Source of the DNA: an uncultured Clostridia bacterium
GTDB taxonomy: Bacteria; Bacillota; Clostridia; Christensenellales; UBA1242
Direction: 5' to 3'
Assembly (NCBI GenBank): GCA_944349905.1
Contig: CALVNR010000003.1
Span: 69,974-133,973, forward strand
DNA: 64,000 nt
The position numbers and the translations under genes are program-made. The notes under the pieces were generated by a model. It searched no databases. It was not told where the DNA came from and saw only the letters and a program-made list of their open reading frames with translations. Below, piece by piece: positions 37,301-64,000 of this stretch (the stretch's first letter is position 1; every line of letters starts with the position of its first letter).

Positions 37301-40300
37301 TTTACGTTTACATAAACATCAAGAGTATTATCTTTTGAATTGTCTAAATAACTTTCTTTTTCGTTAATTTTAAAGTCAACAAGAGTAACTGTTGCAGTAG
37401 TTCTTTTGCTTTCTACTTGATTGTTGATTTCTCTTATTACTGTTGCATTCAAATAAATTCTGCCATCATCATTTTTAGATTCTGCCAAAATGCTTGCAGT
37501 CAATCTATATTTATAAATTCTTTTGTTTGTTGTAGAGTCAATGTTTTCACTGATTAAATAATAATCAATGCCACTTTCTGCTTCACTTACATCTATTCCT
37601 TCAACTCTTTGATCAAGGTTTACTACAATTTCAACTTCGGCACTTCCACCTTTTGCAAGTAATACAGAATTCTTGCCGTCAATTGTGATTGAAGGTTCTG
37701 ACAAATATGAAACAAATATATAAGTCTTAACATAATCAATTTGAGATGGTTGTCCAGTTTCTTCGTCAAAAACATAATAAGAAATTGTAATTTCAATAGT
37801 GCAATCTTGTGGTATAGCACCATTAATAGTTGTCAAGAAATACAAATTATTTTTATATAAATTATTGTTTGCGTCAGATGCAATATTGTTCTTGCTAGGA
37901 TAATATCTAAAACCTTCTTTATCTGTAAGTCTTTCAAAATTAATCTCACTTGTTGAAGTAAATTCATTATTTGTGCTTTTTGCAACTGGTGTAAAAGTAA
38001 CTCCGTTGCTTATAGGAGAATTTCCATAAGTAACTTCCAAGTAATCATAATAAGCATATTGTGGATTTACACTTACTTGCATGATAGAAGATGTTCCAGG
38101 TGCCAAAATACCAGTAGTAGTTGATGCAGTAGTGTATACTGTTTTGTTGCTCTTATAATTTGTGTTTGTAACCTTATAGTTAGACACATCAATTTTGGAA
38201 ATTTCTTGTTTGTTTATATTCAAAGTTAATTGAGAAGAAGTATATCCGCTCTTTGCAACAAATTGAACTTTATAAACTTCATCAGATTTTAACTTTTCTT
38301 TATAACTTTCATACACTGCAAAATTGAAATTAAAAGTTTTTAAATAAGAAGTTGTATTACTATAAGTAGAAGCTAATGGATTTGAAGTTATATCTATCAC
38401 TTCAATTCTTGCTTCTCCGTTCAAGCTATAAACAATACTATTACTATTGCTATCAGCATTAGCTACAAGTTTTGTTAAAACATCACCTGCACCTACAATA
38501 TAAATTTCAGGTACAACTTCATCGTTTTCGTCTGTTGTAAACAAATTTACACTTACTGTTGCAACAGTAGATGGAGAAATTGAAAGAGTATTTGCTGTCA
38601 TGCCAATTTCAATAGCACCATCTTTTGGATTTATACTAAATGCAACTTCTAATTCATCTTTAATTAATCGTTGCTCGTCTGAAAGAGTTCCATCAGTTTG
38701 AGAATTTGTAGAAATTAAAGGATAAATAGAAATATTTAATTTATTGTTACCATTAGAAATAGCATTGAACACATTTGAGCCCAATTGTTCAAACTTAACT
38801 TCACTTGTATCGTCCGAAACTTCATAATAAGCAAAGTTGTCAACCATATCTATTTTATATTCAACTGCATCGTTTCCAAGATAAACGCTTGTTGTCTTAA
38901 AATTAGCAACAAATTGTTTTGATTTTGTTTTTTGTAAATTTATTTCTGCATTTGTTTCGTGAGTATATTTTTCTATCTCGCCTATTGAATTTTGAGATAT
39001 AACTTCTATATCACTCACTGCTTTTTCAATTGATGCTTTAAGTTGTTTACTTAATGAAACATCTTGTTTTGAATAAAGATTTAAATCAAAAGTTGTATTT
39101 GTATATTGAACATACAACTCTGAACCAGTAACAAGCAAACTTGAAGAAGAAGATTCAAGCACAATATTTTTATTGTAAATACCCAACAAATCAGAAATAG
39201 AAATAGTATTCAATTGTTTATAGTCTTGCAACTGACTCGTTGTTAAAGAACCTGTATCATAACCTATTCCGTTGTAGAAAAATACTATTACTTCTCCGTT
39301 GGTAATTGCTTTGTAAAGATTTGTTGAATTATCTTCAATTACTGCACTTGACAACGAAATAGAATTTACTTTTTCGTCTTGATAGAATGCTATTAAATAA
39401 GCATTACCACCATTTATATTTTCATTAAAGCCATAACCACTTTCTATAAAAACGCTATTATTTGTTTTAACAATAGTAGAATTAAAATTAGATGTAGGAT
39501 TTTCATCCTCTCCACTAGTAGTAAAGTATGAAATATAACTATCTACAATAGATATTGTATAAGAAGAAATATTTCCAACAAAACCTTTTGCTACCTTTTG
39601 TTCATCTGTAAGGGTTTCGTCTTCATTTGCTTGACCTACAAAGTTGTCAACAAAAGCAAAACATTGTTCAAATGTAACATTTGCAAGAGTTTGTCCAACA
39701 AGTGCACCAACAGAAGTTCCTTGCAACCTATTGTTTGATGTAGCAGAATCTAAATTATAGTCATATACATATGCTTGGAAAATTGTTTGATTTGTTGAAG
39801 CTTGGCCTACAATACCACCAACAATATTTCCGACAAATGTGTTTAGTTTTGTTTTTTCTGTTTCTTTATCAGATTTTAAATTGTAAAATTCAACTCTTAC
39901 TCTTTTAATAATACCTTTGTTTAAACCAGCAACTCCACCAACAACGGTGCCTTCTCCATTAATTTGCAAACCTAAAACAGAACTGTTTTGTATTGTTCCA
40001 TTGTTTGTTCCACAAATACCACCAATATAAGGTTCACTTGATCGTATAAAACTGCTATATAAACCATAAGTGTCTATCGTAACATTGTCAATAGTACCTT
40101 CATTTGTGTTTGCTACAAAGCCAGAAGATTTTGTTATTTCTCCGTTGAATTTAATATTTCTTACAATACCACCTTCAACACCGGTCTTTGTAATAGTATC
40201 TGCAAAAGAATATCCCGTAAGAGTGATAGTTTCATCTCCATCTTTACCTTGCAAACCACCAGTGAAATTATCGTATAAGCAAGATTTTGCATCTAAGCTT

Positions 40301-43300
40301 AAAGTTAAATCGTTCATTACAGTATAAAATAGGTTTGCACCGTTTTCTCTAAAATCGTTTTCACTATAAACTCTATAAGCATAATCAAAACTTAAACCAT
40401 CAGCCACTAAAATATCATAGCAATGGAAGAACTCTTTAAAGTAAATATTTTCACCTTGATTATTGACAAAGAACGCATTTTCTACAAGCCATTGATAATT
40501 TGTTTGGCTTGTTCCAGATTTAATATTATTTAAATCATCTACCAATATTTGACCACTGACAAGTTCTTGATTGTCTTGATTTTGTTTGTAATATTGATAA
40601 TTTATGTATCCATTTATAACTGAATCGCTAGGGAAAAGATAAAGTTTACCACTTGTTCCTTCTGTTAATGCAGAAGACAAATCAATGCGTATCCTGTTTG
40701 TTGAAACTGCCTTTACATTTACAAAGTCTTTTCTTCCATTTTTGTCAACTACAAAATAGCTTACTCCACTATCTTTTGCATTTGTTGGAGAGGTTTTTAC
40801 AAGAAAACTATTAGACATTTGATTTGAATTGCCAACTTCAAAATAAATACCATTTTCATCAATTCCATCAACAATTAATTCTTCTACTCTATCTGCATTA
40901 ATAATAGTAAAATCTAAACTAACAATATAAGGTGCCGTTTTTAATCCTTCGCCTATAACATCAATTATTTCAAATTTATTATCTTTACTAGAAATAGAAT
41001 AAGACAATTGTAATGTTTGTTTATAATTTGGTTGATTGTTTGTTGATAAACCAATAATTGAAAGTTGCATTTGTTTTCCATTTATTCTATCAACATAAAT
41101 ATCAAAATAAATATTTTCAAATTCATTATTATTTGAATCAACCCACTTGATTTTCAAGTTTTCGTTAGAATTTATATCAGCATTTGATTGAATATAACCT
41201 TTGACATCTGTACCGCCAATATTTGCTTCAAAAACAAAATTTGAAATATCAACATAAGTAGCATCAGCCCTTGAATAAGAAATGGTTACAGTCTTAGAAA
41301 CTTCCTCAGCATTACCCACTGAATTTTTTGAATAAATTACAAAACTTTTATCTGATGAAGGTTCAACACTTAACTGACTTATTGCTTGATAAGATTCAAT
41401 GAGCAAAACTTTATATAAAGTTACTTGGTTTCCCTTATCATTTATCCCTTGGTAAGAGAAAATCACATAAGTGTAACCATTACCTTTTGTTTCAATAACA
41501 TCATAAGTAGAATTAATAGAAACGACACTACTATTTCCTTTGACATTAACATCATTGATTATTCCAATTTTGCCATCTGAGCTATTAAATCTTTCTAAAA
41601 ATGCAGTAAGCTGAGCATCGTAATCTTCATTTTCATCAAATGTAAAATCTAGATATTTTACCCCAATTGTTGCCAACGCAGAAATATTATTTAAAGTCTT
41701 ATTAAAAATATGTGAAACAGGAATAGTTTTCCCATTTTTAATCATCAAAACAGAATCAGAAATTTGACTGCTTGATTGTATAATTTCACCTGCTTGACCT
41801 TCTATTGTTTCACTTACAAACAAATCATTGTCTTCACCTTTCATGGTAATATCATTTGTTTCATTTGAAACAGAAATAGATGCATCCGTCAAAGGATAAA
41901 CTATATTAAAATAAATTGGTTCACTTTTGGCACCATTTTCATGTTCAAAAATAAAATAAGTTTCGTTGCTTGTAATTCCAACATATTCAGGATTTAAAGT
42001 AAAATCAATAGAGAAAATTACATTGCCATTATCAATAGATTTAAAACTAGGATTGCTTATTTGAATGTAAGGCTTTGGATAACTTGAATTTGAAACAATT
42101 ATGCCGTCAACACTTGATTGTCCTTTTAAAGTAAAATTAATAGTTTTAGTATTAACAGAACTGCTGTTGATAAAAATTTCATCTATTTCATTAACAAATT
42201 CTATTTTGTCTGAAGATTTTACAAGCATAACATTTTTTAATTCAACAGAAACATTTGGATTATCAACTGATTCAAATACAATATTTACTCCTTCAAAAGT
42301 TCCATAATCAATATTACCTTCTTGCTCTTCCAAAAATTTTTCATTTGCTTTAATATAAATTTCATGGATTAAATTTGAAATCTGAGTGCTAGAAATGTTA
42401 TCTGAAACAAAAGCATTTGCTTCTCCAACCCAGTTAAAATTCACTTTTGAATAGACACCATTTGATTTGGTATAAATTTCAACAAAATTTTCTTCACCCA
42501 AACGATATTGTTCTGTGGAAACATAAATTTTTATTTCACCACTGACATCTAGCACAGTATCAGGTGTAAGAGAAACTTTGTAAAGTTGACCAAATCCAGA
42601 ATTTGAAGAATATTGAGAATATATTTTTTGCTGAATCTTTGTTGCGTCAGAATCCCCCTTCATAATGTTTATCGCATTAATTTGTTCTTTTGCTTCAACA
42701 ATCAAATTTCCCAAATTTAAATCATTTGTATCTATTTTGTAATCAAATTCCTTATACCCAATTTCAAAAGAAATATAATATGAAGAATTTACTTTAATTG
42801 AATTGCCTTCCTCGTCTTTTAAATCTTCGTTGGCATAAACAATAAATTCATATCCATTTTCAGAAGAAACAACCAAATCGTTGCAAATTTCACCTTTTTT
42901 GTTTCTTACAACTGGTGTGATTTCAAGATTATCAAACCCTTCAACCAAAATATAACCAACATTTTCTCCATTTTCACCAATGTTAGGAATTATTTTTAAA
43001 GTTAAAGTTTTTACTCCATTTTCATCGGCCACTGCATTAGATAAAAATTGATAGTCTTGATTTTTTGAGTTTCTAACACCAAAATCAATATCGTCAGTTG
43101 TTATCTTTTCAATGCAAGTAAGGTCAACAGTAGCACTAACACCTAAATGAGTTGTTGCGACCAAAGAAATTGTAGATGATTGTGCCGTAGAAAAATTTTC
43201 AGGTAGAGTTAATTTATTTCCACTTATTTGTGCACCATTAAATTCTTGTGTGCCAGTGGCTTCAAAAGTCCAAACGACATCTTTACGATTGCTTGATGCT

Positions 43301-43776
43301 GGTTCAAAAGTAAAGAAATTGTCAGCAATTAAGTCAACAGTTCCGCCAACGATTGCAAATCTATTGCTTTTATTTTGCACATCTTCATTTTTTAAATACA
43401 TGTTTGTAACTTCACTATAAATTTCAATGTTTATGTATTTTGCTTCTCCCCCTTGTTCGGCAGTCAAAACAAGTTGAGTGTTTCCTTCATTTAACCCTTC
43501 AATTACAACTTCGCCTTTGCCGTCGTCTAGATAATTTACATCATTAACTTTTGCAATGCCATTATTTGTAAAATAAGGAACTTGAATAGTTTTATCATCA
43601 GAACCTGTTACTGCAAAAACAACAGTAGCAGTTGGCTGTTCATCTTTGCTATTGAGTTGAATGGATATATTTTGTGTTTCCACTTCTAATTTTACTTTTG
43701 GAGCGCCACAAGCATAAAGTATGCTTGCTCCAAGCATAACGAAGATTCCTAAAAGTCCAACGATAAACTTTTTCAT
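25339..43776 (-). CDS. Giant (6145 aa) predicted surface lipoprotein with Ig-like modules and multiple GLUG-type repeat blocks
   Basis: Single uninterrupted 18.4-kb ORF with SD AAGGAGGA. Signal peptide with lipobox MKKFIVGLLGIFVMLGASILYAC (Cys23). Big_2-like segments (GNTQLVLTAEQGG, SPTNAKDSGVSYFVVD). Many repeats such as IGGICGTNNGTIQNSSV, VAGFVLNNNGNITNSRV, ASGFVYRNEGYVENCYS, AGGIVGYNQSS..VSNCYNAG and FDGNGHTIHIKSF. Confidence 0.9.
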   Translation of the reverse strand: MKKFIVGLLGIFVMLGASILYACGAPKVKLEVETQNISIQLNSKDEQPTATVVFAVTGSDDKTIQVPYFTNNGIAKVNDVNYLDDGKGEVVIEGLNEGNTQLVLTAEQGGEAKYINIEIYSEVTNMYLKNEDVQNKSNRFAIVGGTVDLIADNFFTFEPASSNRKDVVWTFEATGTQEFNGAQISGNKLTLPENFSTAQSSTISLVATTHLGVSATVDLTCIEKITTDDIDFGVRNSKNQDYQFLSNAVADENGVKTLTLKIIPNIGENGENVGYILVEGFDNLEITPVVRNKKGEICNDLVVSSENGYEFIVYANEDLKDEEGNSIKVNSSYYISFEIGYKEFDYKIDTNDLNLGNLIVEAKEQINAINIMKGDSDATKIQQKIYSQYSSNSGFGQLYKVSLTPDTVLDVSGEIKIYVSTEQYRLGEENFVEIYTKSNGVYSKVNFNWVGEANAFVSDNISSTQISNLIHEIYIKANEKFLEEQEGNIDYGTFEGVNIVFESVDNPNVSVELKNVMLVKSSDKIEFVNEIDEIFINSSSVNTKTINFTLKGQSSVDGIIVSNSSYPKPYIQISNPSFKSIDNGNVIFSIDFTLNPEYVGITSNETYFIFEHENGAKSEPIYFNIVYPLTDASISVSNETNDITMKGEDNDLFVSETIEGQAGEIIQSSSQISDSVLMIKNGKTIPVSHIFNKTLNNISALATIGVKYLDFTFDENEDYDAQLTAFLERFNSSDGKIGIINDVNVKGNSSVVSINSTYDVIETKGNGYTYVIFSYQGINDKGNQVTLYKVLLIESYQAISQLSVEPSSDKSFVIYSKNSVGNAEEVSKTVTISYSRADATYVDISNFVFEANIGGTDVKGYIQSNADINSNENLKIKWVDSNNNEFENIYFDIYVDRINGKQMQLSIIGLSTNNQPNYKQTLQLSYSISSKDNKFEIIDVIGEGLKTAPYIVSLDFTIINADRVEELIVDGIDENGIYFEVGNSNQMSNSFLVKTSPTNAKDSGVSYFVVDKNGRKDFVNVKAVSTNRIRIDLSSALTEGTSGKLYLFPSDSVINGYINYQYYKQNQDNQELVSGQILVDDLNNIKSGTSQTNYQWLVENAFFVNNQGENIYFKEFFHCYDILVADGLSFDYAYRVYSENDFRENGANLFYTVMNDLTLSLDAKSCLYDNFTGGLQGKDGDETITLTGYSFADTITKTGVEGGIVRNIKFNGEITKSSGFVANTNEGTIDNVTIDTYGLYSSFIRSSEPYIGGICGTNNGTIQNSSVLGLQINGEGTVVGGVAGLNKGIIKRVRVEFYNLKSDKETEKTKLNTFVGNIVGGIVGQASTNQTIFQAYVYDYNLDSATSNNRLQGTSVGALVGQTLANVTFEQCFAFVDNFVGQANEDETLTDEQKVAKGFVGNISSYTISIVDSYISYFTTSGEDENPTSNFNSTIVKTNNSVFIESGYGFNENINGGNAYLIAFYQDEKVNSISLSSAVIEDNSTNLYKAITNGEVIVFFYNGIGYDTGSLTTSQLQDYKQLNTISISDLLGIYNKNIVLESSSSSLLVTGSELYVQYTNTTFDLNLYSKQDVSLSKQLKASIEKAVSDIEVISQNSIGEIEKYTHETNAEINLQKTKSKQFVANFKTTSVYLGNDAVEYKIDMVDNFAYYEVSDDTSEVKFEQLGSNVFNAISNGNNKLNISIYPLISTNSQTDGTLSDEQRLIKDELEVAFSINPKDGAIEIGMTANTLSISPSTVATVSVNLFTTDENDEVVPEIYIVGAGDVLTKLVANADSNSNSIVYSLNGEARIEVIDITSNPLASTYSNTTSYLKTFNFNFAVYESYKEKLKSDEVYKVQFVAKSGYTSSQLTLNINKQEISKIDVSNYKVTNTNYKSNKTVYTTASTTTGILAPGTSSIMQVSVNPQYAYYDYLEVTYGNSPISNGVTFTPVAKSTNNEFTSTSEINFERLTDKEGFRYYPSKNNIASDANNNLYKNNLYFLTTINGAIPQDCTIEITISYYVFDEETGQPSQIDYVKTYIFVSYLSEPSITIDGKNSVLLAKGGSAEVEIVVNLDQRVEGIDVSEAESGIDYYLISENIDSTTNKRIYKYRLTASILAESKNDDGRIYLNATVIREINNQVESKRTTATVTLVDFKINEKESYLDNSKDNTLDVYVNVNQVLSYNYVFDPEELVYDNNDKDSTDAYKYIMDQRNIFEQNQYYPQIESDGSLSEGSKDSYLINVRKNSGLNTTYSEIPLIDRIYYVVGDNMFVPVTAGNVDSPFNISVIDGKINIFANTKTEATRQIMIRTYVTINGEENKYDQYYTLRAVVYSDKDLPLTIDNSEEFLQLSSSEENTAHDYILMNDIVLENYTPFNTNFISSFDGNGHTIHIKSFDVESQSGVLNLALFNNVTENTLLKNVRVNLYNGGRISVNVNDFSEINIAGFAIENNGIITNSEVVSYYTDKYSQLNDSMKTESTVKISGQSGIVVTYTQGNTTKVNMQEGSSWKSNVAGFVLNNNGNITNSRVGGDKIIELGQVTQSVGLINAKYINLETFNIVAQGQVAGFVLQNQSSVAASYVKNLAMENNSMTEREEKAYASGFVGINNGSIITSYVEGVKQSTSLPNDIYARLGSEIKSNLCVVTGFVLTNSADANIKDCYSNIKISSIDNSNPVYLASGFVYRNEGYVENCYSASQIENQKFYQMNFSGISAEGDLLANGKYVNCYYYNQEYSEEDSSTGASTENDFDTNVLMVPDPSNADYFYGFAIASFGNDDGIWYMDSTSIEEGRETLKLIEPDMLTISYRYKQELSSEIGSYILPYGSILLEGEQINTTLGSKINPIIIKSAEEFVEATGSSSSTPIQNQYNDKAIFGSYRLVDNIDMRAFNAQTITLPSTQRAFSGNLYGNGFTINNLSLTYNGSNLSYGLFKSIEIYTELRDADNPRIINLNLDVSSNLFAPDVIYVGTLAGYIKDALLINIDINYSNNAQVQGKNFAGSVAGLIANSTIIKNIEVTNPNIHAVKLPSTETETFFDLPRVIDYRTVLNNLNYNYTFTGNDSIANYVANYSYAGGVAGYVDIFNSTSINSYFEYNENQEFNIINVKVDGIVKIIGQVAGGLFGLTAQQTAIQDVGIVVSGSMNQNSSHILTTKDFAGGVIGQSFGYISKIFAEHEENVQKDIEDYIALYYLENKDVERGILDLFMPEDSDLRKYDQKAIGGLIGYVGSGLLEIGYSKLNVISTTVDSAGGIIGQTDLRYTRSYLVDNNKVAVGQYTRFLLNEVYSVGDVRASKNGESKNSGGMIGTISNSNDRIAFLASNAINFFTNINYDTGEKYSDTEIGNKVYQFVGGAGTDVDLPTSVSFWTARKEGATGEEAAKAVASVGYVQDYKFGNNGTVNINLYKDWKNSSSTDSADDSTYMVEGIYTYTSGTIGYQATQKVFLNSGVWSVENWAHAADRIFPEIKYSLADPSIIYLDSYASSITRVLTAMRQNPTITVIVRGLKENSENEYADIDLTPYLSNYEIAGFGGSIISSNEYQVNENNQSRQVRLILNNSLLKSTSPGFSITNTHIKYDSTTAINGGIISVSTIEGASIDGLKIYLESGVTFNITENSLNAGLIAPSLYSTQINSLYIDTAEVPGNALTVRFSDDFKENINEDVNVNVGLISGQAIQDSETSVMYVRNVFISTPEDTQNLISFDENTKNRINNANVGLYFGLIEKESPNENGRPKSDFRLEINTIENASMSVYAKKGLNAGGYVGSSSNLNNFSVGSSSTLNSNISIVLNENCKNANIGGIFGNLTDGSEISLNAYNEYASTNGSINVTVKSDETNNIEIVKANIGGIIGYSKKQTSISNFNVGVNIGKKISLTSENREQAIGGLIGHNESKTSINSVKIGNHNNNGINLTVGENTPIKVGSAVGYSSGLISSENTNGYILSDLDITILNPQSSTRSTGNTSPYHVGGLVGYYSYANDESANLTSSSAYTGNIKFELSSNSKNSIFAGGIFGYVNGSNFTISNTVFGGKIIVETPNSNNVYAGGTVGYINAEKTTQFNINYAYNYGDVFIDYKNKDNTLSNYYFGGIIGNINGNNKAVLSNCYSAVTNHNARLASSGSSTTNAIIGGGSIKGDNVYYNSAVCLAFDTQATDIGYNANSIKGYSKDENEETDIGYNSSSDKGYSKDENEETGIFIIGKIKGLNQSLSEFATWLKETENKNWHDNISKLNPSSEYLTEGKTDGNEFDYDIKYYTADVLLNASNLETLTNVAIVGNFVDIDLTSNSNIIEKAVVSSISGYSSISGVNLIINMSSDSATNNVGGLVDQMSKNSIIYGVGVNGSMSIGGTASISMGGIVGQMTGGLIAESYTNLDMIYRAADGGTISAIANYANGNNAYIDYTYATGSVVTYIDANMYAFASGTTSLNISNSYTIAKLDWNDYTSENTSPSGTIGVFSGASTTNSYFDTNGVNYNGLTDTNTSEFLEGGSLFKYNNWVKDIDFNYGYPTRGFVYLKQSSWAERNSGDSTAKEKPITYDDCITTYTYTKVLNGEVPSSTKGYSYMIPNAGILAKITDITANNFVLMYDIDLSNTEYNNEWVSLSQKDKNEKELGFAGVELDGQDKTIVGLNTSLFKTLSGTVRNLRLTEISSSTAALANEISNGTVSNMTLEGTINIEKYVEHAGALANTITGGNIDTVTSIDTVTSMVKIDSTGNIGAIAGSVSGEVNINFCSNYGPLNTTGNAAGGIVGQIASGSTTIIDYCFNGSSVLSGYTNTEDSEDNGYYAGGIVGYNQSSSMTVSNCYNAGMIKAGNKNNTSMSYAAGIVAKSVELNNNTYKISDCYNEGPIEALGENPEIKFKIENINRVDEKIYKNITYTYDPKLGTIPAIENIDDLKIQVVQESKPNVSANYISNINANNVNYNENVEVVRNGGACKKGTVYYELNYQNNQEVYIKNYESELLQYYDPTTTGNYWELKYWKKVYDGVGAIAGTEYEMVLKIRPEVTEQAIKKDDTGYFCILQSNYLGIPVVFADYQKLNIFSAIITNTYEESPFWEYDYIIRTYGKNANAKSAFDLFLYDKTDSNLSLEEAVLEKINTGLEVARKDDLSLSKNDFSPSNSNEDDILTVKINNTSYYLADKYSAAFDSSTFEYSWTTTIDGLEDTNIENYNITEGATIKYGENNISNIEDKIDIDVQKNGDNAVTVTLTYISNVELDSPTLTATINYRNEQAVNFVEIKESPYIYIDEDSFAIDLDNVILGEENQTNLESSILQSYKEDGKLQVGENTYDNIIKFASGSNYYYFVYDTTNHQLMYYFNANYNNEQVNIKNQATSVYDFILSMPKSFTASREETASVALTFNNETNVAYSAKNEITKSSSYYGHEITFSDFTKEGSEMITSYNYYYNGSQDAIIGILNTENTMLISISKDIERFSLLDTTLLKAPYFAYFNGDFVYSNFLIENVKKFGEDENATSFVITLKSNTAEYFSSKMVNYYFQLKGEIINSDSANIVYDPNFQFDLNTKVSKTKNNITYITTYSNYAISKNYSHQLNGGENNDLLYYNRDLFINGVTSTATATYNTVDTVSITNNNNFAVVYSYKDSQNQEIVGVLDAKATINLSNISDFKVHTTISDPIISDDRIEIVYENETILYNLNLVIKFSEENQLIIDWENSSLYEITSENAIEFNDSYKSNFNISSFADNFYLYLNVNSWDNILKIYKTNPEITDSTDLNLSIQGDLNYYYEGEYLSSNNINSDFYVNNSNLEWDKIFRKDNESDPKIVTIFKNYSEFELKEIKTCSTSWENTSSVTGSHVESAKYDIIMLNDIFITTAKKLKIDYNISGNGYSVIITGNENTQAIFNEIENDKFLKEMNIAGTTNSATLLSQESSPILVGINIFGSILNYNSTTYSISTIDLIRYKQNTEKSDFLGLSTTNGKNVNIFAVLHSIENNTSEYSLLDENYQLKIFYSGKQGNIIINNNFNYYGLIIASNGNNSDKDGNSITINSKADMTNSMLKTGDGFNGNYTQGSSLTGASYGGKVGKLLTEDGTEMNKTNLKIIDSIVGNNGGLIEKNWNDYSIGDIWTTGEAWGGKWTSPMGVTYKDVRTVVCTPTIQNTYYFFIFANRHQSGGNILDYNLGEIDDTARIDYAARDEVLNQFVNKFSYLWLMADGTPLHKAPQPIS
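29761..29796 (-). repeat. In-frame 18-bp tandem duplication inside the giant gene
   Basis: tgtaacagtatcaatact / tgtaacagtatcaatatt encodes IDTVTS-IDTVTS (about aa 4661-4672). Confidence 0.9.
31291..31410 (-). repeat. In-frame 60-bp tandem duplication inside the giant gene
   Basis: Two 60-bp units (31291-31350 and 31351-31410) differ at 4 positions. They encode TDIGYNANSIKGYSKDENEE / TDIGYNSSSDKGYSKDENEE (about aa 4123-4162). Confidence 0.9.
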
Positions 43777-58117: not shown

Positions 58118-58162
58118 TGGTGCTCCACGAGGGATTCTAACCCCCAACCCTTGGTTCCGAAG
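58118..58162 (-). pseudogene. 3' half of a tRNA-Arg(UCG)-like gene (anticodon loop to CCA); the 5' half is absent
   Basis: Minus strand reads CUUCGGA ACCAA GGGUU GGGGG UUAGAAU CCCUC GUGGAGC A CCA. These are the anticodon loop (U33, anticodon UCG, G37), variable loop, T-arm, acceptor 3' strand, discriminator and CCA. Sequence 5' of position 32 cannot pair with the anticodon-stem or acceptor strands. The T-loop has A at the normally invariant C56. Confidence 0.6.
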
Positions 58163-58320
58163 GGGCGACCTGAAAATGCCAAGAGTTCGACTTTTCGTAT
58201 CATATTTTACCATAAAATATCATATCAAAAATCTCTCAATCCCTTTATTTTTCAGCATTTTCGCCACTTCTTCTTATCAAACAATACTATACAATACTTC
58301 CACCTAAAAATACAACACAA

Positions 58321-58369
58321 ACACCCCGTTTGCAAAAGTCTTGCATTTTTCTTGCAAAAATTTGTAACA
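58321..58369 (+). repeat. 49-bp direct repeat, copy A (degenerate promoter/operator-like)
   Basis: acaccccgtttgcaaaagtcttgcatttttcttgcaaaaatttgtaaca matches copy B at 44 of 49 positions. It contains three TTGCA(A/T) elements. Confidence 0.85.
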
Positions 58370-58456
58370 TTTTAAGCTATGTTAATTTGTTTTTTAAATG
58401 AGGTTACGCATAATAATAAATATTTTTATTAAAATTTATTCTTTAAAATATCTTGT

Positions 58457-59230
58457 TTATGTTTTTTTTGTTATTGTCAATATATGCGTTGATAATCCAA
58501 GCATTTCTTTTTTTTCACATACTCTTAATTGCCAATCTTTTATAATTTCAAATTCCTCCTCATCAAGTTGGTTTGAATGTTCCTTTAAAATTTCAAATAA
58601 CCCATCAGTAGAAATATCTTTAATATGTTTTAATCCTGCGTCTTTAACATATTTTTTAAATTCATCAATAAAATATGATTTATAAATATCTTCAGAAAAA
58701 GATTTAAAATAACCTATATCGTTAAATAAATTTTTACATTTTTTTAGATTTTTATTTATAAGTCCATATCTAATTATAATTGCTGTAGGTGAAAGAAAGG
58801 TAAATAAAACAAATCCTCCTTTTTTACAAATTCTAACACTTTCACTTATGGCTTTCTTAATATCTTTTTCTTCAAATAAATGAGAGAGAACTCCATTTAC
58901 AAACACAATATCGAAACTTTCATTTTTAATTGATTTTAAGTTTATTATATCAGCTATAACTGTTTTTATATTTTGTTTCTTTGGAAAAGACGAAAAATAT
59001 TTGCCAAATATGTCCACTGCGGTGATTTCAATGTTTCTGTTTGATAATTCTGGAGTAAAAGCTTTAATACCTGAACCAATTTCGATAACTTTATCTCCTT
59101 CTTTTATATATTTGTTCAAATATAAACATGTTATATATCTTTCAAGTTTTGCATAATTTGAAGGATTTTCAAATTTTTCATCGTTTCTATTTTTATAAAA
59201 ATTATAAAGATTATCAACTCTTTTGTTCAT
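58457..59230 (-). CDS. Class I SAM-dependent methyltransferase
   Basis: 257 aa. Motif I is KVIEIGSGIKAF and the post-I acidic residue is in ITAVDI. FDIVFVNGVLSHL is also present. Substrate unknown. Confidence 0.8.
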   Translation of the reverse strand: MNKRVDNLYNFYKNRNDEKFENPSNYAKLERYITCLYLNKYIKEGDKVIEIGSGIKAFTPELSNRNIEITAVDIFGKYFSSFPKKQNIKTVIADIINLKSIKNESFDIVFVNGVLSHLFEEKDIKKAISESVRICKKGGFVLFTFLSPTAIIIRYGLINKNLKKCKNLFNDIGYFKSFSEDIYKSYFIDEFKKYVKDAGLKHIKDISTDGLFEILKEHSNQLDEEEFEIIKDWQLRVCEKKEMLGLSTHILTITKKT

Positions 59231-59362
59231 AACTTTTCTCCTATCAATCCGATTATATCACACTATATTAAATAATTTACAAAATTTTCATTATTTTTTA
59301 ATATTGTGTCAATTTTTTTATTATAAAAATAGATATACAAAAATTACAAAATAAAATACAAA

Positions 59363-59411
59363 ACACCCCATTTGCAAAAATCTTGCATTTTTCTTGTAAA
59401 AATTTATAATA
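59363..59411 (+). repeat. 49-bp direct repeat, copy B; doubles as the likely promoter of the terS operon
   Basis: acaccccatttgcaaaaatcttgcatttttcttgtaaaaatttataata. It contains TTGCAT (59383-59388), 16 nt, TATAAT (59405-59410). Confidence 0.8.
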
Positions 59412-59569
59412 ACAACTAGAATTGTTAAAGATTTTATATTTACAAATTTTTATTGTGGAAATTGGTTGTCAAAAAAATTTTCTATAATAAATGTTGAAAT
59501 ATATGACACTAAATCTTGAATATTGAAAATATATATGTTAAAGTAATTTTAGATTAATAAACTTACGTT

Positions 59570-59609
59570 TAGGTTGTTCACTTTTTGTGGTGGGCAACCT
59601 ATTTGTTTG
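59570..59609 (+). promoter_or_regulatory. Stem-loop plus T-rich tract just upstream of the terS RBS (possible attenuator)
   Basis: taggttg (59570-59576) pairs with caaccta (59595-59601) across an 18-nt loop, followed by tttgtttg. Confidence 0.3.
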
Positions 59610-59620
59610 AAAGGAAAAAT

Positions 59621-60046
59621 ATGGATAAATTTGAAAAGGAAATGTTAGAGAATAATAGAAAGGCTGCGATTGCAACACAAGAAAACAACGATAAGATTTT
59701 AACCATTCCAAGTTATTTAACAAAGGAAGAAAAGGTTGCATATAGCGAGATTGTGCAAACCTTAAAAGAAAGCATCCATTACAGGCTATCTTCAACTGAT
59801 GCTGAACTAATTTGGCAATATTGTCAGATCAAAATTATGCGTGATAGAGCTTGGCGAGAATACAACAAAAACCCAGATAGATATATTCGTATAGTTACAG
59901 GAATTTGTAGTGATGGAAAAACGCCAAAAGTTATGGTTAAAGAAAATGAACACTATAAAACATTAATAGATTGCAATAAACAACTCGAAAAGATTTTAAA
60001 AGATTTGAGATTGACACCAGAAGCAAGAAAGAAAAGATATTTTTAG
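59621..60046 (+). CDS. terS: Phage terminase small subunit, P27 family
   Basis: 141 aa from the ATG at 59621 (SD AAAGGA). The pattern IPSYLTKEEKVAYSEIVQTL...DAELIWQYCQ...LKDLRLTPEARKK matches the P27-family layout. Confidence 0.75.
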   Translation: MDKFEKEMLENNRKAAIATQENNDKILTIPSYLTKEEKVAYSEIVQTLKESIHYRLSSTDAELIWQYCQIKIMRDRAWREYNKNPDRYIRIVTGICSDGKTPKVMVKENEHYKTLIDCNKQLEKILKDLRLTPEARKKRYF

Positions 60047-60098
60047 TTGTCACTATGCAAAACAAAAGATTTGTGCTATAATTAAATAGAGGTTAAAA

Positions 60099-60488
60099 AT
60101 GTATACAGGTTATTTTGGAAAAATGAAAAGTTATCCTAAGGATAAAGAATATAGATATGTTTCTATTGCAAGGTTTAATAAATTTTGGTCAGGAGAAGAA
60201 TATAAAAAGTTGACACCACCTGCAAGTATTATAAAAATTGAAGATAAAGAACTTTATACAAAGTTGTATTATGAGCAAGTATTAAACAACTTAAATCCGC
60301 AAGAAGTGTATAATGAACTTGGAGATAATGCTGTTTTGTTATGTTATGAAAAATATGCAGATATTGAACAAGGAAAAACATTTTGTCATAGGCATATGGT
60401 GGCTAAATGGCTAGAAGAAAAACTAGGAGTTGAGGTAAAAGAATTAGAAAATGAGAATAAAGACAATAGTCAACAATTACATTTCTAA
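60099..60488 (+). CDS. DUF488-like small protein (phage-associated type)
   Basis: 129 aa. MYTGYFGK...YVSIAR...VLLCYEK......FCHRHMVAKWLEEKLGVEVKEL resembles the DUF488 LLC.E...CHR signature. SD GAGG. Confidence 0.5.
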   Translation: MYTGYFGKMKSYPKDKEYRYVSIARFNKFWSGEEYKKLTPPASIIKIEDKELYTKLYYEQVLNNLNPQEVYNELGDNAVLLCYEKYADIEQGKTFCHRHMVAKWLEEKLGVEVKELENENKDNSQQLHF

Positions 60489-61668
60489 CTTTATTAATGA
60501 AAATAAATTTAGAAATATTTATATCTATGGGTCTAAGTACTTACAGATAGAAAAATTAATAAGTAAATCAACATCGTCATCAATAATTGGTGACGATGTT
60601 GATTTTTGTAACACATTACTTGCAGAATATTATTTAAATAGGGATAAAAAAATTATTCTTCCAGACCATGTGTGTAAATCTTTACGAATAGAAAATCAAG
60701 ATGTTTATTCAAGTGTAGAGAAAGTTGCATTAGCAATTATTGGAAATAAAATCCTTCATAAAGAAAGCAATTATCACTCCACAAGGTTAAATGATAATAT
60801 AATTAAAAATTTAGATTTATTGGTTAAACAAATAGTTCAAAAAGTTGAAGGAGAAGACATAAAATTAACAGATTTTAAGCAAATGAGTTTAAAAGATTTT
60901 ACAAAATTGCCAGAAAAAGAAGATTTGTTGATAATTGACAATAGAGATTCTAACAATTTAAAGAAAAGTTTGCATGAACAATTACTTGATATTGGTACAA
61001 GTTTCATAATTTTATCTAAAAAGGATATCAATAATTTGGGGGAATATAAAGTATTGCATAGTAAAACTATTAAGATATTCTCAAATTGCATAGAAAACAA
61101 TATGTTAATATCCAAACAAAACAACAAAACAGATAAACAATTGTCTTTTGATACTATTGAAAATGATAATATTGAACATGTTGCCTTAAAGCAATTAAAT
61201 CATACTCAGTTCAATTCTTTAAGACAAAAATATTTAAGCAAACAAATTCACTTTACCGGCACTCCTAAAGTTTGTTATGGATTATTTAGCGGAAACAAAA
61301 TATTTGGAGTCTTTGGTTTAACAAATGATTATAATCATAAACCACCAAAGGATATTGAGCATCCGTCAGTTTATTTGATGACAGATTTTTGTGTTAAAAG
61401 TTCAATAAATAAGTTAAGCAAACTTGTTTTATATTGTATTTTAAGTAAAGATGTGAAAATGTTGGCTGAAAGATTAGTTAGCAAAGAAGTTAAAAGTATA
61501 TTTACTAATGTATTTACGAAACATAAAAGTTCTATAAAATATAGAGGTTTGTTTGATTTACATACTAGAAAAGAATTAGAAGATAAATCATTTAACTTAA
61601 CATATATTTCAAAATTTGGTAATTGGACATTAAAGGAGGCTGTAAGCTTATGGAAACAGAAATTATAA
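60451..61668 (+). CDS. Hypothetical 405-aa protein (C-terminal half faintly acyltransferase/Mom-like)
   Basis: The ORF overlaps both neighbours, by 38 nt upstream and 19 nt downstream. The C-terminal YGLFSGNKIFGVFGLTN...VYLMTDFCV...KLSKLVLYCIL pattern is only suggestive. No family recognised. Confidence 0.6.
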   Translation: MRIKTIVNNYISNFINENKFRNIYIYGSKYLQIEKLISKSTSSSIIGDDVDFCNTLLAEYYLNRDKKIILPDHVCKSLRIENQDVYSSVEKVALAIIGNKILHKESNYHSTRLNDNIIKNLDLLVKQIVQKVEGEDIKLTDFKQMSLKDFTKLPEKEDLLIIDNRDSNNLKKSLHEQLLDIGTSFIILSKKDINNLGEYKVLHSKTIKIFSNCIENNMLISKQNNKTDKQLSFDTIENDNIEHVALKQLNHTQFNSLRQKYLSKQIHFTGTPKVCYGLFSGNKIFGVFGLTNDYNHKPPKDIEHPSVYLMTDFCVKSSINKLSKLVLYCILSKDVKMLAERLVSKEVKSIFTNVFTKHKSSIKYRGLFDLHTRKELEDKSFNLTYISKFGNWTLKEAVSLWKQKL

Positions 61669-62522
61669 AAATAGACCCAAGAAAAATAAAACTTTTAGAA
61701 GTCAATGCAAGATATATGAAACCTGAAGAATATGAAAAGTTGGTTTCAAATATAAAGAAAGATGGTAAACTAACTTCAGTCCCATTTTGCTATTACAATG
61801 AAGATAATAAAATTGAGGTGCTTTCTGGCAACCACAGAGTAATGGCTTCTATTGAGGCCGGACTAAATGAAATACAAGTAATGCTTTGTAAAGATAAACT
61901 TTCAAAAGATAAAGCATTAGCAATTCAATTAAGCCACAATTCTATAGTAGGACAAGATGATGAGGAATTGTTAAGAAAATTATATGCAGAACTCGAAAGT
62001 TTGGAATTTAAAGAATATTCAGGACTGACAGATGATTTCATAAATTTTTGCAAGCAAACTGAAAAAGATTTTAAAATACCTAATTTACAGTATCAAGCAA
62101 TTAATTTACTATTCTTACCTAAGGAAATAAATGATATCAAAAATTGTTTAGAAGATTTAGGCGAACTGTTAAATAGCTTTACAATTCTAGCAAACATAAA
62201 GGATTATGATAACTATTTGGAAACTTCATCTTTAATTTCTAAATGTTTAAATATCAAAAATCCATCCACCACTTTTTTATCAATATTAGAACTCTCAAAA
62301 CAAAATATCAACAATTTAAAGAAAATAGCTTTTGATAATGAAAATATAGATTATACTCCTATTTCTACGATATTAGGAAGAAGTGATATAAATAAAGAAT
62401 ACGCTATTACAATAGATAATGCATTAAATAAAATGGTAGATAAAAGAATTATTAAGAAAAATGAAAAAGGGAAAGGTTTATATCTTTTAGCACAAGAATA
62501 TTTAAAAAACATTAAATCGTAG
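61650..62522 (+). CDS. ParB/Srx-fold (ParB-like nuclease) domain protein
   Basis: I prefer the start at METEIIKID (ATG 61650), preceded by AAGGAGG. The N-terminal region IDPRKIKLLEVNARYM...VLSGNHRVMASIEAGL matches the ParB N-terminal domain, and the C-terminal ~190 aa are unknown. Confidence 0.75.
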   Translation: METEIIKIDPRKIKLLEVNARYMKPEEYEKLVSNIKKDGKLTSVPFCYYNEDNKIEVLSGNHRVMASIEAGLNEIQVMLCKDKLSKDKALAIQLSHNSIVGQDDEELLRKLYAELESLEFKEYSGLTDDFINFCKQTEKDFKIPNLQYQAINLLFLPKEINDIKNCLEDLGELLNSFTILANIKDYDNYLETSSLISKCLNIKNPSTTFLSILELSKQNINNLKKIAFDNENIDYTPISTILGRSDINKEYAITIDNALNKMVDKRIIKKNEKGKGLYLLAQEYLKNIKS

Positions 62523-62610
62523 AAAAGACAAAATGCTTTTTACAAAAATAATTGCATAAATTTACTTTTTTTAGTTAACAATTTAACTAAAATCAACATA
62601 TAATAAAATG

Positions 62611-62665
62611 TTATTGCAGAAATTTTGCAATAAGGGTTGATTTATTTAAAAAATTATGATAATAT
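62611..62665 (+). promoter_or_regulatory. Operator-like palindrome plus promoter of the ATPase gene
   Basis: Inverted repeat ttattgca (62611-62618) / tgcaataa (62626-62633), then TTGATT (62637-62642), 17 nt, TAATAT (62660-62665). SD GAGGTG. Confidence 0.5.
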
Positions 62666-62683
62666 ATCAATGAGGTGTGAACT

Positions 62684-64000
62684 ATGTTAGTTAATTTCTC
62701 CGTTAAAAATTATAAATCTTATAAAGATGAAGCAAATTTTACTATGAGAAAGGCTCCTAGAATAAGAGATTTATCTTATAGCCTACTTAAAGAAAAAATA
62801 AAAAGTAAGAACTTTGAAGTTTTATCATCTTCTGTATTATATGGCCCAAACGCATCCGGCAAAAGCAATATTCTTGACGCGATGAACACATTAAAACATA
62901 TTATATTGCGAGGTTCCATTAAAAATGCTCCACCAATAGCAGGAACTCCCAATGCTCAATCAAATCTAGAGTTAATACCTTTTATTTTTGGTGCAGAAAA
63001 TCCAATAAATTTTAAAATTGAATTTATTTATAATAATTTTCACTATTTATATGAATTATCTATTAATGTAGGAGAATTTCTGTCAAGCAGTCAATTTAGA
63101 GAAATTGAATACGAAAAACTTGATATTAATTTTGTCAATATATTTGAAAGAGAGAGAAATAATCTAAAAAGACTAAGTATATTAAAAGATTATAAAGATG
63201 ATTTTATAGATGATATTGATACGGATAAAATAAAATCAATGTTTAACGAAACTTTGGTTGAAGACTCTATTTTTCTTACTAACGGTTTTAAAAATATTAG
63301 CAAAAAGTTTAGCCAAGATATAATTAAATGGTTTGAAAGTGATTTAATAATTATTCCTAAGTTAGAAGGAACATTTAGCTTACCTATATTTGAAGATAAA
63401 AAAGTTTACATTGATACTTTTGTTAATAATATTGCAAAACAGTCAGGAATTAGCGGTTCTGATATTGCTTATATTAAAGATGAAAGCTCGAAAACTGTTA
63501 CCGTTTCATTAATTCAAAAAGATAAAGACTCAAGCAAAGGCACATTCATACCTGTAAATGTTGTAGAATCCTATGGAACAGCAAGAATAATTCAGTTAAT
63601 GCCAATTATTTTAAGCGTTTTACAAAACGGCTCAGTATTAGCGGTTGACGAACTGGATGGGGCTTTACATCCAATGCTAATGATGAATATAATTAGTATT
63701 TTTCATAATGATGAAATAAATATTAACAATGCTCAATTAATTTTTAACACACACAACCCTATATATTTAAACAATTCTATATTTAGAAGGGATGAAATTA
63801 AATTTGTTGAAAAAGATTTAAATACTCATAGTAGTGTCCTTTATGCATTGTCTGACTTTGGTACAAAAGGTGAAAATTCCGTAAGAAATACAACAGATTA
63901 TATAAAAAATTATTTTATGAATAAGTATGGGGCTATTTTAGACATTGATTATACTGATATCTTCAAAGATGCTATGAGAGGTGTAATAAATGAAAAAAGC
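62684..64000 (+). CDS. ABC/SMC-like ATPase of the AAA_21 (COG1106-like) type; 3' end beyond the window
   Basis: Not in the track because it is edge-truncated. Begins MLVNFSVKNYKSYKDEANF. Walker A is GPNASGKSN, Walker B/D-loop is LAVDELDGALHP and the H-loop is IFNTHNPIYL. Also has RRDEIKFVEKD....SVLYALSDF and a YFMNKYGAI tail. Confidence 0.8.
   Translation, partial: MLVNFSVKNYKSYKDEANFTMRKAPRIRDLSYSLLKEKIKSKNFEVLSSSVLYGPNASGKSNILDAMNTLKHIILRGSIKNAPPIAGTPNAQSNLELIPFIFGAENPINFKIEFIYNNFHYLYELSINVGEFLSSSQFREIEYEKLDINFVNIFERERNNLKRLSILKDYKDDFIDDIDTDKIKSMFNETLVEDSIFLTNGFKNISKKFSQDIIKWFESDLIIIPKLEGTFSLPIFEDKKVYIDTFVNNIAKQSGISGSDIAYIKDESSKTVTVSLIQKDKDSSKGTFIPVNVVESYGTARIIQLMPIILSVLQNGSVLAVDELDGALHPMLMMNIISIFHNDEININNAQLIFNTHNPIYLNNSIFRRDEIKFVEKDLNTHSSVLYALSDFGTKGENSVRNTTDYIKNYFMNKYGAILDIDYTDIFKDAMRGVINEKS

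Follow-up and report, generated by a model that had tools for sequence, protein, structure and literature searches.

The analysed DNA, called the window throughout, is a stretch of 64,000 nucleotides from a contig (CALVNR010000003.1) of an uncultured Clostridia bacterium. Its right end carries, on the forward strand, abiLi, a gene for an ATP-binding cassette (ABC) ATPase of the AAA_21/OLD-like type, preceded by a promoter and a perfect palindrome, and followed by the first bases of an overlapping second gene, abiLii. The initial annotation had seen here a separately promoted ATPase, likely the first gene of a two-gene anti-phage module, and had left the system unnamed. The abiLi open reading frame (ORF) begins with an ATG at 62684 and is still open at the last base of the window (62684-64000, 439 of 440 codons); position 62611, from which the annotated feature had been counted, marks the beginning of the palindrome and not that of the ORF. 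The closest database protein (P0001) is 440 residues long, with one residue different; as this is also the full length of the protein in near-identical contigs, the codon of the last lysine and the stop, expected at 64004-64006, are all that lies outside the window.

The ATPase is recognised as AbiLi by PADLOC along residues 1-428 (E 2.3e-73, 245 bits) and as AAA_21 by Pfam (E 2e-25, 90.9 bits, with a gathering score of 27), in agreement with its earlier description as an AAA_21-type defence ATPase. Weaker PADLOC matches are found to AriA (E 1.5e-25, 89 bits), to PDC/HEC candidate families and to PtuA models (E 1e-7 or weaker), while NCBIfam returns only P-loop-sized fragments of MAD3 and RecF, far under their cutoffs. 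The Walker A motif GPNASGKS (62843-62866), the Walker B/D-loop LAVDELDG (63638-63661), the H-loop THNP (63749-63760) and the tail RRDEIKFVEKD...YFMNKYGAI, all listed in the initial annotation, are present, as is the ABC signature ESYGTAR (63566-63586); each occupies invariant columns in the alignment of the family (74 sequences). For the AlphaFold2 model, with a predicted local distance difference test score (pLDDT) of 82.6, structural matches are found to Rad50 heads, the Thermus OLD nuclease 6p74 (E 1.5e-8) and the Septu/retron PtuA. A hidden Markov model (HMM) search of PDB sequences with the family profile gave no usable solved structure, and the single AbiLi sequence gave marginal PtuA matches only; no coiled coil is found in the protein. 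The ATPase is therefore of the OLD/Rad50-like defence type, and not a housekeeping one. The sole long stretch of low confidence in the model, residues 395-418 (window 63867-63938, pLDDT about 40), includes six invariant residues (G396, V400, R401, Y406, Y410, G416). Low confidence combined with invariance is the pattern expected of a segment which becomes ordered only upon partner binding, and the modelled loop may, as a speculation, be taken as a candidate interface.

The partner gene begins at an ATG at position 63990, out of frame with abiLi, which had already been indicated as its possible start. At 99.2-99.9% DNA identity, the end of the window is found again in six public contigs (L001, L003, L004, L005, L009 and L092), which extend beyond it: in all of them abiLii is present, and the same ATG opens a 214-residue ORF (L001 4627-5271 corresponds to window 63990 onward). 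The first 11 nucleotides of abiLii, 63990-64000 on the forward strand, are within the window; its end is expected at about 64634. It overlaps abiLi by 17 nt, and a ribosome binding site (RBS), read from the sequence as GAGAGGTG (63976-63983), lies 6 nt 5' of the ATG, within the end of abiLi. The product scores 40.7 bits against Pfam RloB (gathering score 31.5) and E 1.9e-10 against PADLOC AbiLii. The PADLOC check proposed in the initial annotation thus returns both AbiLi and AbiLii, the latter read from the sister contigs, and the partner, being RloB-like, belongs to one of the three types of small nuclease there named. These contigs also settle which system is present: it is AbiL, rather than PARIS or Septu, because the partner is an RloB protein and not a DUF4435 or HNH one. 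The locus is one more AbiL of the established type, which standard defence finders would call.

An alignment of 89 RloB sequences contains 16 invariant columns, including E13, G14, E17, D67, E69 and N103, all conserved in the AbiLii of this locus. In its AlphaFold2 model (pLDDT 94), four strand-helix units are seen, with E13/E17 just past strand 1 and D67/E69 where strand 3 ends; this layout, with acidic residues at strand ends, we take to be the TOPRIM arrangement. A search of 1.84 billion representative proteins with the RloB profile produced 1278 matches; among the 150 listed none is fused to an annotated TOPRIM protein, and all are stand-alone or incomplete proteins of 126-241 residues. 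A hairpin-plus-U terminator is found about 180 nt 3' of abiLii (L009 7020-7040, expected at about 64814-64834 in the numbering of the window); in L002 and L006, two of the close relatives described below, a terminator hairpin stands just after the RloB gene. Judged from the sequence, abiLi and abiLii form one operon, on account of the 17-nt overlap with an internal RBS, of the single conserved promoter upstream and of the terminator after abiLii. The segment between the abiLii stop and the terminator (L009 6838-7050, corresponding to about 64632-64844) is predicted to fold strongly as RNA (-54.3 kcal/mol, z = -4.4); within it, a 16-codon ORF has a good RBS, and a long hairpin (CAACUUCUUGU...ACAAGAAGUUG) immediately precedes that of the terminator. 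The element is not kept in the close relatives, whose terminators directly follow abiLii, and Rfam reports no known RNA in the cassette and its 3' region.

The conservation of the pair was evaluated by scanning one genome per GTDB species, which yielded 80 loci with ATPase identities of 39-100%, whose ORFs were called and searched with the RloB profile. Of the 77 loci whose downstream sequence is long enough, 68 (88%) have RloB directly after the ATPase gene, mostly overlapping it or within a few bases, and so do all four close relatives selected for comparison (L002, L006, L007 and L008, ATPase protein identity 66-78%). When flanking ORFs were compared all against all, no conserved gene emerged on either side: the largest upstream cluster includes 2 of 61 loci, the largest downstream one, recombinase-like, 5 of 48. 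As RloB pairing is kept and no third gene is conserved, the unit consists of two genes, with abiLi as the first, as had been proposed.

Upstream of abiLi, the palindrome, TTATTGCA-N7-TGCAATAA, is a perfect inverted repeat at 62611-62633, and is here indicated as the operator candidate O1. It is followed on the forward strand by a -35 box TTGATT (62637-62642), an extended -10 box TGaTAATAT (62657-62665, with TG at 62657-62658 and TAATAT at 62660-62665) and the RBS GAGGTG (62672-62677), 6 nt 5' of the ATG. A second promoter-like site, TTAACA-18-TATAAT (62575-62604, forward strand), found by promoter scan with 11 of 12 consensus positions, ends 6 nt 5' of the palindrome. TTGATT-17-TAATAT matches the consensus at 8 of 12 positions, which is under the scan threshold. 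In this DNA (29% GC) promoter-like sites occur about once per 100 bp, 47 being found over 5 kb against 35.7 +/- 6.5 in shuffles; similarly, perfect inverted repeats as long as those of the relatives (7-8 bp) appear in 7-39% of the shuffles of their upstream regions. Since both kinds of signal are common in shuffled DNA, neither the palindrome nor the promoter is significant alone.

The comparison with the four close relatives is more informative. All four share the palindrome arms TTATTGC/GCAATAA without change, around a spacer that varies; TTGATT follows 3-6 nt past the palindrome, identical and likewise placed at -47 from the ATG in L002, L006 and L008, and replaced by TTGTAA in L007; the -10 box aligns with TGnTATAAT in all four, and the RBS with AAGGAG. 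The genes lying upstream are unrelated (an integrase in L002, other ORFs in L006, terminator hairpins in L007), and TTGATT-17-TAATAT, the promoter of the initial annotation, is thus the conserved one, travelling with the cassette. No conserved counterpart of the site at 62575-62604 is found in these relatives, and it is uncertain whether it belongs to the unit. No terminator separates the upstream ParB-like gene from abiLi, and read-through transcription into abiLi is therefore possible. The poor consensus, the better-scoring site nearby and the possible read-through are minor corrections to the initial annotation. A further perfect inverted repeat, with 10-bp arms (TTTTAGTTAA-N4-TTAACTAAAA, 62569-62592), lies 19 nt 5' of the operator and overlaps the -35 box of the alternative site; it scores z = -3.8 as a single-stranded DNA fold and is absent from the close relatives.

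The core of the palindrome, TTGC-N9-GCAA (62614-62630 in the window), was first met again in an inverted-repeat search upstream of ATPases 40-45% identical to AbiLi, and turned out to be a feature of the whole family. Within 200 nt 5' of the abiLi start codon, an exact core is present in 60 of 82 loci, against a background of 0.004 per 200 nt; allowing one mismatch, it is present in 75 of the 82, with two copies in 35 (background 0.09 per 200 nt). Elsewhere in the loci the core occurs 17 times in 772 kb, about as expected by chance, and the motif has a single occurrence in the 64 kb of the window. Site positions are bimodal, 47 starting at -110 to -91 and 42 at -40 to -31. Start-anchored alignment reveals a fixed layout around a promoter of the sigma-70 type: O1 (ATTTTGC-N9-GCAAAAT), about 15 nt, the -35 box TTGAC, 17 nt, the -10 box TATAAT, about 9 nt, the second copy O2, the RBS GGAGG and the ATG. 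In 29 of 30 loci the distance from O1 to O2 is 71-75 bp, most often 74 bp, or about seven turns of the helix. The clade of the window has O1 only, placed about 10 bp, or one turn, nearer to the -35 box.

Hosts of the motif family include Lachnospiraceae, Oscillospiraceae, Spirochaetota, Paenibacillaceae, Acholeplasmataceae and others. The motif is also retained in 8 of the 9 loci devoid of RloB. It is absent from three inspected plasmid homologues (24-29% identity, the best plasmid identity being 29.5%), a set made of distant members only, with no lactococcal AbiL plasmid among them. A scan of public collections with the operator pattern of the window clade detected one further copy of the same locus (L092) and seven chance matches in metagenomes, and none in viral contigs, indicating that this exact variant is confined to the clade. 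In three distant AbiL loci (L068, L078 and L079) the core is centred in a longer perfect inverted repeat, with arms of 23-27 bp in place of the usual 7-10 bp. The idea, advanced in the initial annotation, that the palindrome is an operator is thus supported by family-wide conservation to a degree that a single sequence could not provide. No mention of a TTGC-N9-GCAA operator was found in the literature searched, and the conserved architecture is apparently new to it.

Taken together, these data make it quite probable that the locus is an AbiL-type abortive-infection module, in which an abiLi-abiLii operon has its own promoter and operator, AbiLi would restrain AbiLii until infection, and the palindrome would serve for self-repression. 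In the mechanism proposed, AbiLi oligomers would keep AbiLii inactive and also serve as the infection sensor; a phage cue would free or activate AbiLii, whose E13/E17 and D67/E69 would form a TOPRIM-type metal site; the enzyme would then cut nucleic acid, with tRNA as the leading candidate and DNA nicking as the alternative, and the growth of the infected cell would be arrested. Restraint and release are suggested by analogy with PARIS and P2 OLD, and by the published toxicity of AbiLii. In PARIS, AriA holds AriB, which cleaves tRNA (PMC11464382, PMC12409363); P2 OLD is an abortive tRNase (10.64898/2026.07.10.737580). AbiL itself has been placed among the systems in which an ABC ATPase is combined with a TOPRIM protein (PMC11464382, PMC13064643). 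RloB is related to OLD_TOPRIM by HHpred, and TOPRIM_OLD toxins are neutralised by AAA partners in two pairs that were tested (PMC10440598). E. coli is poisoned by the AbiLii of Fusobacterium (PMC3985639). The AbiL of Lactococcus takes effect at a stage later than phage transcription (PMC13064643), with which a block at translation would fit.

As regards control, AbiLi and/or AbiLii would bind the palindrome and repress their own operon, as in toxin-antitoxin operons. This self-regulation is the likeliest reading of the upstream sequences: the palindrome keeps fixed positions relative to the promoter across phyla, and the only two conserved genes nearby, which include no regulator, are those encoding AbiLi and AbiLii.

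Several observations weigh against this interpretation. Neither AbiLi nor AbiLii has a recognisable DNA-binding domain, helix-turn-helix (HTH), ribbon-helix-helix (RHH) and AbrB-type folds included. In the single published test, Fusobacterium AbiLi supplied from a second plasmid did not neutralise AbiLii (PMC3985639); because of this failure in trans, restraint of the nuclease by the ATPase is not established for AbiL. Nine of the 77 loci lack RloB and have unrelated neighbours instead, and the body of abiLii lies outside the window, being read from sister contigs only. As to the TOPRIM nature of AbiLii, Foldseek of the high-confidence model against the PDB returned no TOPRIM structure, and the RloB profile, run as an HMM against PDB sequences, returned nothing. 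In favour of a TOPRIM fold, hhalign places the RloB segment SVEGETE on LVEGKTE (396-402) of P2 Old, in the TOPRIM region among 586 residues, though the match is a weak one (E 0.028, probability 1.8%); E402A, at the end of this segment, is reported to be a catalytically inactive OLD mutant (preprint 10.64898/2026.07.10.737580).

Known systems resemble the locus to different extents. AbiL from the L. lactis plasmid pND861, on which PADLOC and DefenseFinder have models, likewise consists of two co-oriented, overlapping genes on mobile DNA, coding for the AbiLi ATPase and an RloB-family AbiLii. While this prototype resides on a dairy plasmid, the present locus sits in the chromosome or in an island of an uncultured gut anaerobe of low GC content, and belongs to a subfamily (40-100% identity, mostly from gut Clostridia and Spirochaetes) bearing TTGC-N9-GCAA. 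The RloA/RloB pair of Campylobacter jejuni, found in type I restriction-modification (R-M) loci, combines a protein of the same Pfam family (RloB, PF13707) with an AAA ATPase and has R-M genes adjacent to it; a type II R-M pair located about 1 kb 3' of the cassette in L003 recalls this arrangement, although the locus is not inside an hsd operon and the neighbouring R-M genes are of type II and convergent. PARIS, with which trees of AAA_15/21 defence ATPases group AbiL (PMC11464382), is also split into an ABC ATPase and a small putative TOPRIM effector, and the logic of a sensor holding an effector is probably shared; the effectors differ, being RloB here and the DUF4435 protein AriB in PARIS. 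With P2 Old and other class 1 OLD proteins the likeness lies in the fold of AbiLi, which matches 6p74, and in the alignment of SVEGETE with the segment containing the catalytic E402; ATPase and nuclease form a single polypeptide in Old and are encoded by two genes here, and the similarity on the nuclease side is marginal by the tests applied. Two further systems were considered and discarded: Septu, as the partner has no HNH domain and PtuA models match poorly, and Gabija or class 2 OLD, as ATPase and partner are separate genes and no UvrD helicase gene is found 3' in L003 or L009.

Type II toxin-antitoxin operons, and AbiE, where AbiEi binds inverted repeats, are likewise bicistronic: their second product is toxic and the promoter lies between inverted repeats; most members of the AbiL family similarly have two operator copies. 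AbiE is subject to negative autoregulation through its repeats (PMC13064643), while the proteins of the locus have no detectable HTH, RHH or AbrB-type domain. Such likeness raises the question of whether the pair might mainly be an addiction module stabilising a mobile element, with RloB as toxin, the ATPase as antitoxin, and defence secondary or absent. Type II toxin-antitoxin operons typically have a palindromic operator at their promoter; integrases, MobL and other mobile genes stand beside the cassette in relatives and sister contigs; NetFlax includes AAA/RloB pairs in its toxin-antitoxin network (PMC10440598), and AbiLii is toxic (PMC3985639). We nevertheless regard this explanation as unlikely: the founding AbiL confers phage resistance (Deng 1999, as summarised in PMC13064643), a simple antitoxin would need nothing like the size and conservation of the ATPase, and the two roles are in any case compatible, PARIS behaving as both. 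Much less probable still is that the locus is another ABC-ATPase defence system, such as PARIS (AriA/AriB), Septu (PtuA/PtuB) or a Gabija-like one. The secondary PADLOC matches to AriA and PtuA and the structural ones to PtuA and OLD would point that way; yet AbiLi scores 245 bits against 89 for AriA, the partner is RloB/AbiLii and neither DUF4435 nor HNH, and neither a fused TOPRIM domain nor a downstream UvrD helicase gene is seen. That the ATPase is a housekeeping ABC protein of the RecF/SMC-like repair type, with an unrelated small neighbour, is hardly credible. Rad50 and SMC heads are its top structural matches, and weak matches to Pfam SMC_N and NCBIfam RecF occur at the P-loop, but these span about 20 residues around Walker A and are far below threshold (20.2 versus 40 bits for SMC_N, 19.1 versus 172 for RecF, the family which the initial annotation had named as a possible refutation); besides, the protein has no coiled coil, it is paired with RloB across the family and the genomic context is mobile and variable.

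A different question is whether the palindrome is bound by the proteins of the module at all. It might instead form a hairpin in the leader RNA, affecting translation or stability, or be the site of a host factor, spread by horizontal transfer; such explanations appear rather improbable, though less so than those just discussed. They would account for the lack of a DNA-binding domain in AbiLi and AbiLii, and the palindrome would be at the 5' end of the mRNA if the promoter at 62575-62604 were used. The departures from symmetry are of interest here. In O2, the copy near the RBS which the window clade lacks, they are mostly compatible with G-U pairing on the sense strand (38 versus 4), and this could reflect either a hairpin formed by the RNA at the leader's 5' end or one inherited GCAG variant beside the RBS. 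In fact, the bias is largely due to this variant, which may be inherited rather than repeatedly selected. In O1, on the contrary, departures are unbiased (19 of G-U type, 13 of A-C type), as expected for a DNA site; moreover O1, the sole copy in the window clade, is 5' of the conserved -35 box and is therefore not transcribed from the conserved promoter. A single host factor is difficult to reconcile with hosts ranging from Bacillota to Spirochaetota, Acholeplasmataceae and others, and elsewhere the loci contain the motif about as often as chance predicts, while the window contains it once. Self-regulation by AbiLi and/or AbiLii is thus still preferred.

The locus lies in a variable stretch, rich in phage and mobile-element genes, of a low-GC gut bacterium; L009, a contig from a metagenome-assembled genome of Candidatus Caccovivens faecavium, is 99.93% identical to window 58152-64000. 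The abiL cassette lies at the end of a block of phage-type genes, four of which, co-oriented with abiLi, occupy 59585-62522, directly 5' of it. They code for a terminase small subunit (Terminase_4/phrog_83), a phrog_2450 protein, a 405-residue GNAT-phage-like protein with a weak DAM-like N-terminus, and the 299-residue ParB-like protein (phrog_7405). Genes for a large terminase or a capsid were not seen near them, and the block could be a satellite or a prophage remnant. Its left border varies among otherwise near-identical contigs, with breakpoints at window 59335 in L003 and L004 and at about 58150 (58146-58152) in L009 and L092. A tRNA-Arg gene is located about 100 nt outside the 59335 border in L003 and, together with the existence of two different borders, suggests a recombination or insertion hotspot.

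On the 3' side of the cassette, the sister contigs contain a SLOG/YpsA-like gene of 150 codons, a type II R-M pair, followed by two integrases, MobL and a gene for an excisionase-like HTH protein (L003 8023-10809 and 11298-16600; L009 7043-9064). In L003 the restriction enzyme has GmrSD_N and HNH domains and matches PADLOC REase_II with E 3e-138, and the methylase matches MTase_II with E 1.5e-114; in L009 an additional gene of 217 codons, of unknown family, is inserted 3' of the cassette. The L002 cassette is found between an integrase gene and a tRNA-Thr gene. These surroundings are a defence island, on or beside mobile DNA. Within the window, a 257-residue S-adenosylmethionine methyltransferase, encoded on the reverse strand at 58457-59230, matches, with E 1.2e-12, PADLOC mad2 of the methylation-associated defence system, of which no further genes were seen in the neighbourhood. 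By far the largest ORF of the window, of 6145 codons, occupies 25339-43776, on the reverse strand.

AbiL is among the oldest named abortive-infection systems; to our knowledge, neither its trigger nor its target is known, and no solved AbiL structure was detectable in the PDB copy searched. The addition of one AbiL, from an uncultured lineage of the chicken and human gut, is in itself routine. The presence of a conserved operator, with no regulator gene, provides a cheap experimental handle on AbiL, and suggests that an OLD-like ATPase/TOPRIM pair may be able to recognise a specific DNA sequence. It may tentatively be proposed, as a conjecture which we hold to be somewhat short of even odds, that this AbiL subfamily carries its own sequence-specific control circuit, portable between phyla, in which AbiLi and/or AbiLii would bind the palindrome of the cassette, the sensor-effector complex thus being the repressor of the operon as well. 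The palindrome would be ATTTTGC-N9-GCAAAAT, or TTATTGC-N9-GCAATAA in the clade of the window, with two copies, about 74 bp apart, bracketing the promoter in most members. Occupancy of the operator might then even contribute to restraining or triggering the system. In addition, the motif could help in annotating AbiL promoters and in telling functional cassettes from decayed ones.

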